A stretch of 64,000 nucleotides of DNA from IMG/VR virus record IMGVR_UViG_3300010413_000013, positions 12,010 to 76,009 of that record. One strand, 5' to 3'. This stretch comes from a virus. Position 1 is the stretch's first letter, and every line of letters starts with the position of its first letter. The notes under the pieces are model-generated. The model saw only the letters and a program-made list of their open reading frames with translations. It did no database searches and had not been told where the DNA came from. Below are positions 4,387-12,703 of this stretch, one piece after another. The position numbers and the translations under genes were made by a program.

Positions 4387-4409
4387 TTGAACAAAAATGT
4401 GGTATAATA
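4387..4409 (+). promoter_or_regulatory. Rightward promoter TTGAACAAAAATGTGGTATAATA
   Basis: TGnTATAAT extended -10; identical 23-mer at 16743. Confidence 0.75.
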
Positions 4410-4445: not shown

Positions 4446-4712
4446 TTGACAAATATGCAGATCGGCAGGAAGAAAATCAGATTCCAGAAAATTTATCCCG
4501 AAAGGGACCGTTCTACTGATTGGAGTAGATGGTTTCTAGACATTGGTAGAGGCTTCTTTATTTGGGATGAACCAGAACGAAAAGGAAAATTTATTTGTGG
4601 TGCAGGAAGTTTCTCATTTGGAGAAGAAAGAGTAAAACTTATTGAAAGGATCAAGAAAGATGGTAGTACTGTCTTCGGAAATAAGATCAGAGAGAAAATA
4701 CTACTTCAGTAA
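4446..4712 (+). CDS. Hypothetical protein
   Basis: AAGGAGG RBS directly upstream. Confidence 0.55.
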   Translation: MTNMQIGRKKIRFQKIYPERDRSTDWSRWFLDIGRGFFIWDEPERKGKFICGAGSFSFGEERVKLIERIKKDGSTVFGNKIREKILLQ

Positions 4713-4787
4713 AATGAGTAGAAATGTGGTTGTAGACTATGGATACTTGTCTACTTTGTGTAAAATCAAACACTTAAAAAGCCGCTT

Positions 4788-4897
4788 TATATATAATATA
4801 TTAAATAGAGTAATTACTCGTAAGAGTAATTATCGTAAGTACTTCGTACTTACTCAAATTATCTTACTCGTAATTACCGTGTTTCTGCGAAACACGT
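4788..4897. repeat. AT-rich tract with short direct/inverted repeats (candidate replication origin)
   Basis: GAGTAATTA/TCGTAA repeats, GTAAGTAC-ttc-GTACTTAC and CGTGTTTC-tgc-GAAACACG hairpins upstream of the helicase genes. Confidence 0.4.
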
Positions 4898-4915
4898 TCT
4901 ACTTCTTCTTACTGC

Positions 4916-5689
4916 TTGGAGCAAACGGTGAGAAGAAAAATTAGAAAAAAGATTCTTGTAGAGAGTTTTGAATATGGTAGAAGTCTATCTTCTGAAAACG
5001 AAACAGAGATAGAAATGTCTACTGCTACAAAAACAATAATAGATCATTGGTACAATATGCCAAACTTAATCAAATCAAAATTTAATACTAAAGCTTTTGA
5101 GAGAGCAATTATGTTTCTCAATAATAGGAAAATACTATCAGATGTAAAATCTACACATTTCTACTCTATAGAAAAATATCTATCAGCAATACAAACCTAC
5201 AATAATATTCTGCCAAGTGGAAATGTGAAGAAAGTAAATATAGCAGATTTTTTCATCCCACCAGATAGAAGATATTCAAAACAACCCACCTACTATCAAT
5301 TAATTACTTCTGGAAAAATGGAAGAACATATCAAAATAGATGGAACTATAAAACAAAGAAAATATGTTGCTAGTAGAATCCAATGGCATTACTGCAAGCA
5401 TGTACTAGGTGCAGATCCTAATAAACATAGTATCTCACAGAAGCAGGGAAGAGATTTTGCAATAGCAGCTAGAAAATTACTTCGCTATATGTACAAAAAT
5501 AATAAATTGGATATAATAGACTATGAAGAAGGAGCAAAGCTGGATGATTTTATTAGAACATTAATAGCAGCAATTCGCTGGAACTACAGAATGAAGTTCT
5601 TCCATATAGGATGCCTTTGTAGTGAACACACATTTACAGAAGTTTTACCAAAGTATGTACATTTACAAATTAGAAAGGGAAAAAAATGA
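4916..5689 (+). CDS. Hypothetical protein, possibly replication initiator or helicase loader
   Basis: 257-aa basic ORF upstream of the helicase; function inferred from position only. Confidence 0.5.
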   Translation: MEQTVRRKIRKKILVESFEYGRSLSSENETEIEMSTATKTIIDHWYNMPNLIKSKFNTKAFERAIMFLNNRKILSDVKSTHFYSIEKYLSAIQTYNNILPSGNVKKVNIADFFIPPDRRYSKQPTYYQLITSGKMEEHIKIDGTIKQRKYVASRIQWHYCKHVLGADPNKHSISQKQGRDFAIAARKLLRYMYKNNKLDIIDYEEGAKLDDFIRTLIAAIRWNYRMKFFHIGCLCSEHTFTEVLPKYVHLQIRKGKK

Positions 5690-7850: not shown

Positions 7851-9172
7851 TAGAATTAAATCCGATCTACTCTAGGTACACAGGGAAGAAATCTGATATT
7901 TCTGCTTTACTTTCTTATGAAGAAGAAGCGTGGTATCAGGGACCGTTTAGTAAAGAAAGATATACTAAAAAAACATCTTTGCTAGATTCAACTCATACTT
8001 TTCTTTCTGGTTATACAAAAAGGATTACAGATGTATATCCAAAAGTAGAAGTACAACCAATAGATTACAAAATAAAAACCAACAAACATCCTAAAGTAGC
8101 AAAATTTAAATTTAGACAATACCAGAAAAATGCTATAGCAGAACTACTCCAATATAATAGAGGTGTACTAACAGCAAAAACTGGAGCAGGGAAGACATTG
8201 ATAATGGGTGGAATTATCAGTATGGTACAAACGAAAGTTTTGGTAATAGTTCCTACTAAAGATCTACTCCATCAAACAGCAGAAAAACTATCAGATTATT
8301 TTCCTGATTATGCAATTGGTAAAGTGGGAGATAAAGAAGAAGTAATTACAGATATTACTGTTGGATTGATTAATAGTATCTACAAAAATAAAAAAGTATT
8401 AGAAGAAGGATGGGGGATGTTATTGATAGATGAAGCACATAGGGTATCTACATTCGATGGAATGTATGCTAAATTTTTACTATCTTGTAATGCTCCTATC
8501 CGATATGGTTTTACAGCTACTATAGATCCAAAGGAACACAAAGCAGTAGTAATGGAAGGACTCATAGGACCACACGTTGTAGAAGCAAAAAAAGAAGAAG
8601 TAGATAAATATTTAGCCAAACCAAAAGTAGTATTAATAATGGACAGAACAGGTAGACAATATAAAACACTGAGAGGGAAGTATGTAGATATCTATTTTGT
8701 TGGTATTGTACATAATAGATACAGAAATTCTTTAATAATAAAAGAAGCAAAGAGGTGGATAGATAAAGGATTGACAGTATTGATACTAGTAGATAAAATA
8801 GAACATGGAGAGAATCTACTAAAAATGGCAAATATCTTGATGCCTAATAAGTTTGTCTTCTTGCAAGGTACTACAAAATCTGAGATTAGGAGAGAAGAAA
8901 AAGAATATTTCTTAAAAAAGAAACGCAAGGGTGTAATAGCTACTAGAATTTGGGGGGAAGGTACTGATATCAAGACAATAGGAGTAGTAATTAATGGAGT
9001 AGGTGGAGAGAGTGAGAAAGCAGCTATACAAAAATTTGGTAGAGGTATGAGAAAAGCTAAAGGAAAGGAAGAAGTAATATTAGTAGATATCATAGATGCA
9101 GAGAGTCATAAATATTTTATGGAACACTCACTAAAAAGAGTATGCTACTACTCGGACCAAGGATGGATATAA
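7835..9172 (+). CDS. SF2 DNA helicase (UvsW-like)
   Basis: TGAGKT, DEAH, GFTAT, QKFGRGMR. Confidence 0.9.
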   Translation: MANKIIELNPIYSRYTGKKSDISALLSYEEEAWYQGPFSKERYTKKTSLLDSTHTFLSGYTKRITDVYPKVEVQPIDYKIKTNKHPKVAKFKFRQYQKNAIAELLQYNRGVLTAKTGAGKTLIMGGIISMVQTKVLVIVPTKDLLHQTAEKLSDYFPDYAIGKVGDKEEVITDITVGLINSIYKNKKVLEEGWGMLLIDEAHRVSTFDGMYAKFLLSCNAPIRYGFTATIDPKEHKAVVMEGLIGPHVVEAKKEEVDKYLAKPKVVLIMDRTGRQYKTLRGKYVDIYFVGIVHNRYRNSLIIKEAKRWIDKGLTVLILVDKIEHGENLLKMANILMPNKFVFLQGTTKSEIRREEKEYFLKKKRKGVIATRIWGEGTDIKTIGVVINGVGGESEKAAIQKFGRGMRKAKGKEEVILVDIIDAESHKYFMEHSLKRVCYYSDQGWI

Positions 9173-9203
9173 TGGCTAAAGAAGTAATTATGGATGATGA
9201 AGA

Positions 9204-10133
9204 ATGAGTAATTTTGATATTAAAGAATATCTAGAGAATACTGGCATAGAATATTCTTCTGGAGGTAAAAATGTTTCTACTGGATGGATTGGTATTACTT
9301 GCCCATTTTGTGGTGATGTTAGCAATCACTGTGGTATTAATCTCTCCAATAATATTTTTAGTTGTTGGATTTGTGGAGAGTCAGGAGATGAAGTAAAACT
9401 TATAGCAGAGATAGAACAAATAACAGAATACGAAGTTAAGAAGAAAATTATACCACTGTACATAGATCCTTTTAAAACACCACCAAAGAAGAAGAGAAAA
9501 AGAATTGCTTTTGATGTTAAATTACCAGAGTACACTATTAAAGTAGATATAGATAATTTACCTAAAGCAATTATAGCTTGGTTGAAAAGAAGAAAATTTA
9601 GTAAGGATATACTAAAGAAGTATAATGCCTACTACTGTTTGCCCTATTCAAAACATCCTATGTGTCTTTTATTTCCTATTTATGAACATAAAGTAGTAGT
9701 TTCATACATTTTAGTAAACGTAGTTAAAAAGCAATATACTTTATGTCCTGATAGTAATTCTCTAATAAGCAGAAATAGTATCTTATATGGAATAGATAAA
9801 GCAAAGAAATATACAAAAATTTATATAGTAGAAGGATTGACAGATAAATGGAGAATAGGAGATAAAGCAATCGCTATTTTAGGAAAACGTCTGTATAACA
9901 ACCAAGCAAAAAAAATAGCTAAATTTGCAGTAGATAATAAAATAGAAGAAATAGTAATTTTCCTAGATAAAGATGCAAAAAGAGAAGCAGTAAGATCTTT
10001 GAAGAGAAATGCTGGAGCAGTATTACTACAATACCTACCACAACAAATAGAAGTATCTGCTATTTTGCTAGAAAATCAAGACTTAGAAGACGATCCAGAC
10101 CAAGTAGATCCAAAACTACTAACAAAACTATAA
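9204..10133 (+). CDS. DNA primase (Zn finger + TOPRIM)
   Basis: CPFC...CWIC; IVEGLTD and FLDKD. Confidence 0.85.
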   Translation: MSNFDIKEYLENTGIEYSSGGKNVSTGWIGITCPFCGDVSNHCGINLSNNIFSCWICGESGDEVKLIAEIEQITEYEVKKKIIPLYIDPFKTPPKKKRKRIAFDVKLPEYTIKVDIDNLPKAIIAWLKRRKFSKDILKKYNAYYCLPYSKHPMCLLFPIYEHKVVVSYILVNVVKKQYTLCPDSNSLISRNSILYGIDKAKKYTKIYIVEGLTDKWRIGDKAIAILGKRLYNNQAKKIAKFAVDNKIEEIVIFLDKDAKREAVRSLKRNAGAVLLQYLPQQIEVSAILLENQDLEDDPDQVDPKLLTKL

Positions 10134-10350
10134 TTTATATTTATTAGTAGACGTTAGTTTTAGGCCGTTTAATAGACATATAATTACATATAATAGACAC
10201 AAAATAAAACTATTAAATAAATCTACTAATAATTTCAGCTACTTAAAAAACCACTTTAAAGCGGTATTCCAACAAAAAAAATACAAAAAAAGATCATAAA
10301 AAATTTAACTATTATCTATAATAATATCAGCTATTTAGACAAGAAGGTGT

Positions 10351-10379
10351 TTGACAAGCAGATCTACCTATATTACATA
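10351..10379 (+). promoter_or_regulatory. Sigma70-like early promoter
   Basis: Perfect TTGACA at 10351, weak -10 (TACATA at 17 bp spacing), A-tracts upstream. Confidence 0.5.
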
Positions 10380-10384
10380 ACAGT

Positions 10385-10823
10385 TGCCCGGTAAGGGTAT
10401 AGGTTCTCTACATAAGCTTTCCGGAAAGCTAAAACACTTTCGCAGGTTTAATGGTAAATCCGGTATTACCCTCCTGCTGATATCTTTAAAAATTTGGAAT
10501 GATCTTGAAACAAGCAAGCTCCCTTTGCTGATAAAAGCTTGCCTGTTTTTCCTCTGGTAGACTTCTCCTAGTCTGCTATGTAAGTCTTCCTAAGTGGGGA
10601 AGCAATTCCGACTATATAACTCCAGAAGGTAGAAATATAGTAATTATTCTTTTCTGATAAATTGTACAAGGTGGAGACATAAGCGTGAACTTCATTCTTT
10701 GAGGTAGACAGTAAATTGATGGTAGAAGAAAAGAATAATGGTAAATGGTCCCACTTCCTATCATCAGTATGGGAAGTAAAGAAATGCTATGATGTAATAA
10801 TAGGTAGTAGTATTTCGGGACCA
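10385..10823 (+). ncRNA. Putative structured ncRNA or long 5' leader
   Basis: No plausible ORF; at least 8 consecutive helices, several completed by G-U pairs on the plus strand, including a three-way junction at 10746-10823. Confidence 0.6.
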
Positions 10824-10832
10824 AATAAGAGA

Positions 10833-11313
10833 TATTTTATCTTCTTATTTAAGGATAGTAGAGAAAGGTTAGGTTTATTATGAGAATCACTAATACTACA
10901 TACGATCAATTGCAAGAAGCATTAGCAACAGTAAATGAAATGTTTGATAATAACATTACATTTAAAAACTGTACTGCTGCTAATACAAAAGAAACAATTT
11001 GGAATGTTTCACTTAGGGCTGTTGATAGTAGAAAAGCTGGTGCTAGAAGAAGTCCGGGTAGACTTGGTAGAAATGATAGAAGAAGTATTGCTGCTTGCTG
11101 GCATGTTCATGGATACTTCCATGATGCATTGCCAAAAAATGCTACTATTACTACTGGATACTATAATCACAGAACAAAGAAGCATCCCGGTGATCCTTGG
11201 GTAGAACAAAATATGCAAATAGGCTGGGGAACAATACGCCCAATGAGTGATTTGTGTGATTGTGAATAATTTTTATTTTTACTTCTACTATCCTTAAACA
11301 AGAAGATAAGATA
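10833..11313. repeat. 30-bp inverted repeat (10833-10862 / 11284-11313) enclosing one gene
   Basis: TATTTTATCTTCTTATTTAAGGATAGTAGA vs TCTACTATCCTTAAACAAGAAGATAAGATA: 28 Watson-Crick pairs, 1 G-U, 1 mismatch. Confidence 0.9.
10880..11269 (+). CDS. Early hypothetical protein, possibly metal-binding
   Basis: CWHVHG and C-terminal CDC; first gene after the leader. Confidence 0.7.
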   Translation: MRITNTTYDQLQEALATVNEMFDNNITFKNCTAANTKETIWNVSLRAVDSRKAGARRSPGRLGRNDRRSIAACWHVHGYFHDALPKNATITTGYYNHRTKKHPGDPWVEQNMQIGWGTIRPMSDLCDCE

Positions 11314-11315
11314 GA

Positions 11316-11601
11316 TTTATTCTCTTATTAGTGGGGAAGAGAAAGAGTAGGTGTATTATGACAAACTTTGAAAAATATCCTTTCAAGGTAGGACAAGCAG
11401 TAATCTACAATTCTTCTTCCGATAATGAAGACCATTGTGCTTTAATCAAGAAGGTTATAGAAGAGAATCTTCTTGTAGAGGATTGTAAGCCAAGAGCATA
11501 TTGGGAAAAAGAAGAAGATCTTCTTTTTTGGATTCATGTTTCTTCTGTTACCGCAGTAGCATGATAAACATTTTTTGCTTCCCCACTAATAAGAGAATAA
11601 A
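11316..11601. repeat. Perfect 24-bp inverted repeat (11316-11339 / 11578-11601) enclosing one gene
   Basis: TTTATTCTCTTATTAGTGGGGAAG and its exact reverse complement. Confidence 0.92.
11358..11564 (+). CDS. Small early protein, possible SH3/KOW-like fold
   Basis: ATG at 11358 after AGGTG; FKVGQAV motif. Confidence 0.6.
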   Translation: MTNFEKYPFKVGQAVIYNSSSDNEDHCALIKKVIEENLLVEDCKPRAYWEKEEDLLFWIHVSSVTAVA

Positions 11602-11623
11602 ATATAACCAAAGGAGGTATGTT

Positions 11624-11818
11624 ATGAAACGTATTACAGTAGTATTTTTTAATAATGATAGAAAGTATGTGGGTTGGAAGTATATGCATAATACTACCTA
11701 TAGAGAAGTTAGAAATTGGTGCTTATCAGGAAACTTTGTAACTGTAGAAAAGAGAGTTTTTAATTTCGCTAACCATACAAAACTTCTAACAGGTATCTAT
11801 AGAAGAATACTACAATAA
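11624..11818 (+). CDS. Hypothetical early protein
   Basis: AAGGAGGT RBS before MKRITVVFF. Confidence 0.6.
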   Translation: MKRITVVFFNNDRKYVGWKYMHNTTYREVRNWCLSGNFVTVEKRVFNFANHTKLLTGIYRRILQ

Positions 11819-11830
11819 AGGGAGGTAAAA

Positions 11831-12028
11831 ATGCTTTGCAGTGATTATGATAAGAAAGAAGTAAATGAGGTTAGAAGAGAAGATAGCTATCATCCTATGT
11901 ATCATGCTCCACTAGCAAGGAAAATGCCTAGATTTTCAAGTAGAAAAGAAAGAAATGGTAGAGTACATATCTTCTCAAAAACAGAGATTAAACAATATAT
12001 AAAGGAGAAAAACAATGCCGAATTTTAA
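11831..12028 (+). CDS. Hypothetical early protein
   Basis: GGGAGGT RBS. Confidence 0.6.
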   Translation: MLCSDYDKKEVNEVRREDSYHPMYHAPLARKMPRFSSRKERNGRVHIFSKTEIKQYIKEKNNAEF

Positions 12029-12189
12029 AATTGATTTTGATGTAACGATGGTAGTAAAAGCTGCTACCAAATTTGATGCTTATCAAAAAGCATTTAAGAT
12101 TCATTTAGGAGAATTAGAAAAAGAACTACATAAGGGAAATATAGAAGAGTGGGAAGCAACATTAGTTAAAACAATAAAGGAGGTATAAA

Positions 12190-12486
12190 ATGCCATGCTA
12201 CCAAGTAAATTTAGTATCAGTAGAATTTAAGGTAGGTAATAGTCAAATTCTACTTGATATGCTGGAAAGAAAGCAAATGTCATATGTGAAAGATGGTAAT
12301 ACTATTTATATTACTGGTGGAATTAGAGTAAATCTGGAAAAACAAACAATAGTAGCAGGAAGTAATTACCAAGCTAATACTATTAAGAGAGGTTATGCAG
12401 AACAGGTATTGATGACAGTAGCAAAAAAGAAGAGGTGGGCATTTAAGAAAAAGAATGATGGTAAATACCAGATTAGGAGGTTTTAA
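12190..12486 (+). CDS. DUF1257/Ycf35-like protein
   Basis: C-terminal IKRGYAEQVLMTVAKKKRW pattern; neighbourhood with DUF2997-like and Ycf46-like genes. Confidence 0.5.
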   Translation: MPCYQVNLVSVEFKVGNSQILLDMLERKQMSYVKDGNTIYITGGIRVNLEKQTIVAGSNYQANTIKRGYAEQVLMTVAKKKRWAFKKKNDGKYQIRRF

Positions 12487-12487
12487 A

Positions 12488-12703
12488 ATGGCTAATACAT
12501 TTGAAGTAGAAATATTAGAAGATGGAATGTTAAAAATAGATTCAGAAGCATTTTCAGAAAGTATGCATAAAAATGCTGACGATCTGCTAGAAGCAATAAT
12601 AGAAGCAATGGGAGGTAGTGTTACCACTACAAAAAAAGAACACAATTTCTGGAAAAATAAAAATGTATTGAAGGGTGGAAAGATAGTAGAGGTGAAAAAA
12701 TGA
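12488..12703 (+). CDS. DUF2997-like small protein
   Basis: FEVEILEDGMLKID...IIEAMGGSV pattern; AGGAGG RBS. Confidence 0.5.
   Translation: MANTFEVEILEDGMLKIDSEAFSESMHKNADDLLEAIIEAMGGSVTTTKKEHNFWKNKNVLKGGKIVEVKK

Follow-up and report, generated by a model that had tools for sequence, protein, structure and literature searches.

A structured non-coding stretch after the primase gene of an orphan phage, compared with known phage mRNA elements

In the early transcript of phage T7, each RNase III site is a single local hairpin of about 20 bp that contains an internal loop. Phage lambda makes OOP, a 77-nt antisense RNA that overlaps a coding gene. Pairing over longer distances is found in bacterial rRNA operons, where leader-trailer helices enclose the rRNAs and an antitermination complex works with boxA/B/C signals (PMC10250234). 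Short phage leader RNAs may also lie between a promoter and an early terminator, as do the lambda PR'-tR' 6S RNA and StxS (PMC7547250).

Here we describe a locus that resembles each of these in part. The DNA analysed, referred to as the window (64,000 nt), runs from base 12010 to base 76009 of an IMG/VR virus record that is 76,009 bp long, carries direct terminal repeats and has about 31% GC; all coordinates are those of the window. Positions 10385-10823 are a real, moderately significant structured non-coding stretch, outside any known family; they are probably an elaborate form of a phage mRNA element of known kind. Our preferred reading, to which we tentatively give somewhat less than an even chance, is that the stretch acts in cis as a structured leader or intercistronic spacer of the + transcript, with a role in mRNA processing, stability or insulation.

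Genomic setting, coding potential and transcription

The + strand carries every gene from 4642 to 30827, and the stretch lies in the gap between the replication genes and a run of small genes. The surrounding features are as follows.

5' of 10385-10823, + strand: genes for a DnaB-like helicase, a UvsW/ResIII-type helicase and a DnaG-type primase
9204-10133, + strand: the DnaG-type primase gene
10134-10879: the gap after the primase gene, 746 nt
10134-10384: AT-rich first part of the gap, 23-26% GC, with repeated boxes and a TTGACA hexamer
10719-10883, + strand: 54-aa ORF, overlapping the three-way junction and the first gene-enclosing arm described below
10880-11269, + strand: 129-aa gene, first in the run of small genes

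The stretch is the GC-richer second part of the gap (35-40% GC, against 23-26% in 10134-10384). The AT-rich part folds no better than shuffles (z -1.33 on the + strand; z-scores throughout compare the folding energy with that of dinucleotide shuffles). Two to four short boxes and an AT-rich stretch occupy 10139-10232, outside 10385-10823, and the repeated boxes may be protein-binding sites. The box TAATAGACA stands at 10170 and 10191, 21 nt apart, within an 11-bp inverted pair (10141-10152/10221-10232). A second study, labelled soil metagenome (2024), also contains this phage, at low depth, in three of its runs. Where contigs from that study cover the gap (10263-11166) they match it at 100% identity, and so offer no usable variation; in the compared interval 9000-12500 they differ by three substitutions at 12336-12387. 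A marine sediment metagenome is the probable source. None of the runs listed for this DNA is an RNA run, which bears neither way on expression.

The preliminary description had treated the stretch as a candidate structured RNA, and codon scores and translated searches reveal no convincing gene over 10385-10715. The ORF at 10384-10560 was rejected as a gene on a null-like codon score and the absence of a Shine-Dalgarno sequence, and the minus-strand ORFs of the region have codon scores resembling those of random ORFs. A tblastx comparison of the gap with about 165 loci of relatives gave no similarity, so the gap holds no recognisable gene remnant. The 54-aa ORF at 10719-10883 may be coding, judging from its sequence features. 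Its stop overlaps the ATG of the next gene (ATGA), at 0.147 its codon score resembles those of the real small genes of this phage and falls within the top 5% of null ORFs, and a Shine-Dalgarno-like GAGGT lies 13 nt 5' of its ATG, buried in a hairpin. Searched by phmmer against 1.84 billion proteins, this ORF matched only itself and translated tandem repeats. Its matches P0022-P0024 were rejected, P0022 and P0024 being translated tandem DNA repeats with many short matched stretches. No Pfam match was found for it, and Pfam and PHROGs searches of the small neighbouring genes likewise gave no matches; an Atlas search with the 129-aa gene yielded no usable result.

The region had also been placed downstream of a TTGACA promoter. 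The hexamer is there, at 10351-10356, but the hexamer 17 nt downstream reads TACATA and the promoter scan does not list the site. A recurrent promoter-like motif of the phage, AAAAATGTGGTATAAT (extended -10), occurs at five sites and is absent near 10385-10823.

4400, + strand: AAAAATGTGGTATAAT site
16756, + strand: AAAAATGTGGTATAAT site
4331, - strand: AAAAATGTGGTATAAT site
1312, - strand: AAAAATGTGGTATAAT site
-3796, - strand: AAAAATGTGGTATAAT site, 3796 nt ahead of the window start

This motif stands at the heads of divergent gene blocks, and TTGAAC precedes two of its sites. No + strand terminator-like site was found in 9500-12500, where the sole site of this kind is on the minus strand, at 10250-10265. 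With all genes from 4642 to 30827 on the + strand and no + terminator in 9500-12500, the region should be transcribed on the + strand, and we infer that it probably is, within the unit starting at 4400, whether or not the local TTGACA site fires.

Helices, strand preference and gene-enclosing stems

Every helix of the preliminary description was recovered in the sequence at the coordinates given there. They form a left half of short hairpins and a right half made of a stem module and a three-way junction.

10385-10642: left half, non-coding, seven short hairpins of 5-13 bp
10385-10389/10395-10399: helix
10415-10430: 16-nt palindrome, perfect with its loop included
10442-10477: helix
10507-10549: helix of 13 pairs, one of them A.C
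10555-10578: helix of 9 bp, two of them G.U
10586-10602: helix
10611-10641: helix
10643-10655/10727-10739, + strand: perfect 13-bp stem module, pair probability 0.99, -19.5 (+) versus -11.8 (-) kcal/mol
10746-10823, + strand: three-way junction, closed by a 7-bp stem, with arms of 9 bp and 10 bp that abut
10250-10265, - strand only: intrinsic-terminator-like hairpin, a 5-bp stem followed by T6

When 560 nt were folded together, most of the listed helices had pair probabilities of 0.8-0.99. The stem module 10643-10739 encloses 71 nt, including an inner 6-bp hairpin (10689-10705). The junction pairs at 0.97-0.99 and reaches -32.1 kcal/mol on the + strand against -20.1 on the minus strand, where its three G.U pairs become A.C. 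Stems within 10385-10823 do not exceed 13 bp, and coaxial stacks reach 16-17 bp.

Comparison with shuffles, which had been proposed as a check, upheld the structure: 10385-10823 has a z of -3.40 on the + strand (none of 100 shuffles as good) and -2.76 on the minus strand, and 10280-10880 has -4.34 on the + strand. The right half, 10643-10823, prefers the + strand (-4.53, against -2.63 on the minus strand), while the left half, 10385-10642, scores -2.04 (+) versus -3.09 (-). In a genome-wide scan of about 690 windows of 440 nt, with regression on composition, the stretch is one of three standout places, together with 4602-5151 and 11202-11751. The structure of 10385-10823 thus exceeds chance, but unevenly along its length.

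The departures from Watson-Crick pairing, mostly G-U on the + strand, had been taken as a sign of selection on a plus-strand RNA. That argument was biased by the picking of the helices on the + strand and is only partly valid: the right half alone favours the + strand, and the left half has no strand preference. Strand-neutral helix calling leaves only five strong helices, with two G.T and one A.C. The minimum free energy structure has 18 G.U pairs on the + strand against 9 on the minus strand, a difference to be read alongside the greater G content of the + strand. The left-half helix energies split evenly, three being better on each strand, and the longest left-half helix favours the minus strand (-19.4 versus -13.0 kcal/mol).

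The left half could just as well be part of a minus-strand RNA terminating at the terminator-like hairpin 10250-10265. Such a non-coding RNA of about 410 nt, running from near 10654 to the hairpin 10265-10250, could pair with the + leader in an antisense-like manner and so control the early genes. We consider it quite unlikely. In its favour, the single terminator-like site of 9500-12500 is a minus-strand one with a clean T6, exactly that transcript (10654 to 10243, 412 nt) folds with a z of -4.26, and the longest left-half helix has the strand preference just given. A weak minus-strand promoter-like sequence, TTCACG-17-TACAAT, is seen at 10689-10661. A match of this quality (9/12) is expected many times by chance, however, three left-half helices are clearly better on the + strand, and the flanking genes are all on the + strand. 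Terminator-like sites number about a dozen distinct ones on both strands of the genome, and about 0.1 would be expected in the gap by chance. Each of the two minus-strand signals is compatible with chance.

The preferred reading, a + strand leader or spacer, takes in the downstream sequence as well. The helix chain had been said to run into gene-enclosing stems, and two real stems do adjoin 10385-10823. A second structured spacer is found elsewhere in the phage.

10833-11313, + strand: first gene-enclosing stem, 30 nt, 93% complementary, arms 10833-10862/11284-11313, around the 129-aa gene (10880-11269)
11316-11601, + strand: second gene-enclosing stem, 29 nt, 93% complementary, arms 11316-11344/11573-11601, around a 68-aa ORF (11358-11564)
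4713-4915: second structured non-coding spacer, between an 88-aa ORF and a 257-aa ORF

The two stems are the only long-range inverted repeats of at least 18 nt in the 76-kb genome, and the block 10825-11610 has a z of -10.7. Their 5' arms and ribosome-binding regions are alike (10860-10886 versus 11338-11364, 85% over 27 nt), so the two stem cassettes are not unrelated in sequence. Additionally, 10832-10849 is complementary to 11588-11605 (18 nt), and a 13-nt segment inside the stretch itself, 10593-10605, perfectly complements 11575-11587 in the arm of the second stem. The enclosed 129-aa gene is real, having homologues of 31-39% identity in five viral contigs (L020 and L164-L167) and a weak partial match in L168. 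No gene-enclosing stems were seen around these homologues in L020 and L164-L168. One of the contigs, L164, carries long tandem and inverted iteron arrays 5' of its homologue (1380-2480), and has its own consensus TTGACA-N17-TATAAT promoter at each small early gene.

The spacer 4713-4915 is more structured than 10385-10823, with a z of about -6 on the + strand and -6 to -7 on the minus strand; it may function as an origin or operator, or else as an RNA element. It contains a nested hairpin of about 68 nt, formed from repeated GTAATTAC and CGTAAG boxes, followed by a perfect 8-bp hairpin. The same design recurs in this phage, in the two gene-enclosing stems downstream and in this structured spacer.

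Homologue searches and a structured RNA in distant relatives

No riboswitch or ribozyme consensus had been recognised in the stretch at first reading, and 10385-10823 matches no Rfam family. With Rfam 15, the whole window yielded no match at gathering thresholds, and 10000-11000, searched with E up to 10, matched at best snoRNA and miRNA models at 12-24 bits against gathering values of 41-80. ARAGORN found no tRNA or tmRNA gene in the window. A tRNA-like junction was rejected on that result and on a 7-nt loop without U at the U33 position. A group I intron was rejected as well, the primase aligning full-length to its relatives and Rfam giving no match.

The gap was compared by blastn in distant mode with 50,697 phage records, without a match, and by blastn and nhmmer with 80 IMG/VR loci, with nothing above chance. 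A single-protein search of IMG/VR found no close relatives of the primase; the best, from profile scans of viral, metagenome and genome contigs, are 34-38% identical. No close relatives of the phage were found in phage records, IMG/VR, JGI/ENA metagenome contigs or GTDB genomes. The roughly 230 loci from primase relatives contained no nucleotide or covariance model (CM) homologue of 10385-10823, and a single-sequence CM of the three-way junction (R2) matched nothing outside the window in about 0.8 Mb of relatives' DNA. With no homologue in any collection searched, the helices of 10385-10823 have no covariation to draw on.

The distant relatives themselves carry a structured RNA at this position. 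A search of 160 of their loci (0.98 Mb) for long inverted repeats gave 22, nearly all just 3' of the primase gene. The element that they define, R1, is 113-134 nt long and lies on the primase strand between the primase and the next gene. Its stem of 25-33 bp closes 60-85 nt with an inner CTTG...CAAG hairpin, reads roughly AAAnCCnTTT.../...AAAnGGnTTT at its outer end, and is directly followed on its 3' side by a U-run (TTTTTTATTTT). The distance from R1 to the primase stop is 50-450 nt in most cases and about 1.9-2.7 kb in three; the next start codon lies 20-45 nt beyond it in 14 of the 15 examined, and a TTGACA-type site is often found 5' of it. Examples are listed below, and about 25 further loci carry the element.

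L043, 2593-2710: R1
L051, 978-1090: R1
L053, 5030-5145: R1
L087, 5205-5322: R1
L006, 5331-5458: R1
L161, 2452-2583: R1

A CM of R1 (129 positions, 39 pairs) was built from four members, which alone show 16 pairs with compensatory changes. It gave 15 distinct + strand matches at E < 1e-4 and further matches in a later search. Across 15 aligned members with a mean identity of 47%, compensatory changes occur in 35 of the 39 pairs. Pairing was found in 96% of the cells, against 33-55% with a slid partner, the model-fitted alignment itself favouring structure. The stem mismatches, counted symmetrically over 31 distinct elements (26 from the inverted-repeat search minus the atypical L082, plus 6 found by the CM only), are 69 G.U against 5 A.C, so R1 works as a single strand in the primase sense. 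With its U-tract it most simply acts as RNA, and it looks like a leader terminator or a processing site. No Rfam family matches R1, which may be among the 8,495 IMG/VR candidates of PMC10690425.

The R1 model was also run on the phage described here. It had no match in the window with default filters and E up to 10; its best match in the whole genome (E 0.15) lies elsewhere, and with filters off its best score in 9800-11800 is 7.2 bits (E 0.56). The longest stem in 10385-10823 is 13 bp, and a + strand terminator-like site or U-tract is absent. The position is the same: the stretch lies between the primase stop at 10133 and the gene start at 10880, on the same strand. As R1 is not homologous to anything in the window, the support that it gives is one of position, by analogy only. 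The words CTTGCCTG and GAAACAAG are common to the helix 10507-10549 and the inner hairpin of R1; their order is permuted, and they were treated as chance. A post-primase gap that lacks R1, L011:4874-5413, has a TTGACA site, several hairpins (one of them terminator-like) and a z of -6.8. Taken together, R1 and the L011 gap indicate that the clade keeps a structured RNA at the junction after the primase.

The strand specificity of R1 bears on whether the stretch acts as DNA, that is, as a set of protein-binding sites, a replication origin or a recombination site beside the helicase and primase genes. The stretch is directly 3' of the DnaB-like, UvsW-like and DnaG-like genes and has the AT-rich block with repeated boxes upstream; 10415-10430 is a perfect 16-bp palindrome, and the two strands of the left half are structured to the same degree. 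We nevertheless give this explanation a low probability, since the right half is strand-asymmetric and the element at this position in the relatives is single-strand-specific. No iterons were found inside 10385-10823, and the spacer 4713-4915, which has nested perfect palindromes and repeated boxes, resembles an origin more closely. No replication initiator gene was identified.

The stretch may also have no selected RNA function, being fast-evolving filler or the decayed remains of stem-flanked cassettes, possibly with an orphan gene at 10719-10883, in which case the palindromes would be by-products. The failure to find homologues or any conservation fits this explanation, and so do the marginal + strand score of the left half (z -2.0), the partial copies of stem arms inside the region (10593-10605 versus 11575-11587), the recurrence of the ATAAGAGA motif and the gene-like codon usage of the 54-aa ORF. 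Against it stand the overall z of -3.4 to -4.3, among the top three of about 690 genome windows, a three-way junction that is exact and strand-specific, and the selection on structured RNA at this position in relatives. On balance we regard it as unlikely, while granting it real weight.

A proposed leader or spacer of the early transcript and its known counterparts

A trans-acting role had been put forward for the stretch, namely an early phage RNA that would sequester a host defence factor or an RNA-binding protein. A dense helix chain of 439 nt whose first 330 nt hold no convincing gene could be read in this manner. The proposal found no support: no + strand terminator or other defined 3' end precedes the next gene, the hairpin loops share no common repeated motif, Rfam shows no resemblance to known decoy RNAs, and homologues were not found. 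The continuation of the helix chain into mRNA stems around genes suggests action in cis instead, and we consider a decoy or sponge very improbable.

The other role proposed at the outset, a processing leader, has the best contextual fit, by analogy with the covariation-supported RNA at the same position in relatives. Given that no related sequence shows the fold to be selected, an ordinary structured leader or spacer of the early transcript is the most likely explanation. The stretch would be a non-coding, modular part of a + early/middle transcript: a 5' leader should the weak TTGACA site be active or, more surely, an intercistronic spacer of the long + unit that begins at the promoter-like site 4400. 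Acting in cis with the two 30-bp gene-enclosing stems, the hairpin modules, chiefly those of 10643-10823, would separate the message of the replication genes from that of the small early genes. Folding may protect an untranslated, AU-rich run of about 450 nt against Rho and single-strand RNases, and the modules may offer double-stranded sites for processing, the gene-enclosing duplexes being plausible RNase III substrates. Cleavage and effects on expression, like transcription itself, are inferred here.

A bolder extension would treat 10385-11601 as one RNA architecture of about 1.2 kb, in which a folded leader precedes the first host-takeover genes, wrapped in long duplexes. We regard this as a long shot. 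If true, the resulting messages would be monocistronic, paired at their ends and resistant to nucleases or to defence, whether or not a minus-strand RNA partners them, and this would be an undescribed way of organising early phage mRNA. As to the leader or spacer reading itself, functional folds would make the stretch an unusually elaborate structured leader, with double-stranded processing sites, in a phage early transcript. The value of 10385-10823 in itself is limited by its coming from an orphan phage. The more solid gain is that a broad uncultivated phage clade keeps a covariation-supported RNA right after the primase, which marks this junction as a regulatory hot spot.

Among the known systems, lambda OOP is the counterpart of the minus-strand candidate, which would likewise be a small RNA gene on the opposite strand beside replication genes, with a terminator of its own. 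The candidate would differ in its length of about 410 nt, in overlapping only the leader and in its weak promoter. T7 offers a closer parallel to the leader or spacer, as it also has a long untranslated leader before small early genes and double-stranded elements between the cistrons of a long early transcript. Unlike in T7, the leader of the window contains about ten short helices of at most 13 bp, and its candidate sites, the 30-bp duplexes, span whole genes. A duplex of about two turns (20 bp or more), as for RNase III, is not reached within 10385-10823; the adjacent 30- and 29-nt stems exceed it.

The rRNA operons (PMC10250234) share with the window the long-range stems around a whole functional unit and a structured leader in the same transcript, whereas the phage stems enclose protein genes. 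Lambda 6S RNA and StxS (PMC7547250) are likewise structured non-coding RNAs after a promoter and upstream of a gene block, and their architecture suits the R1 of the relatives well. The window leader has no + strand terminator to close it, so their mechanism is not indicated there; as a promoter-leader-terminator unit it has a perfect -35, a -10 of TACATA and no + terminator found. Finally, R1 and the stretch share gene position and strand. R1 has covariation behind it and often a TTGACA-type site upstream; it is one stem of 25-33 bp with a U-run, while the window presents a much longer chain of short helices.
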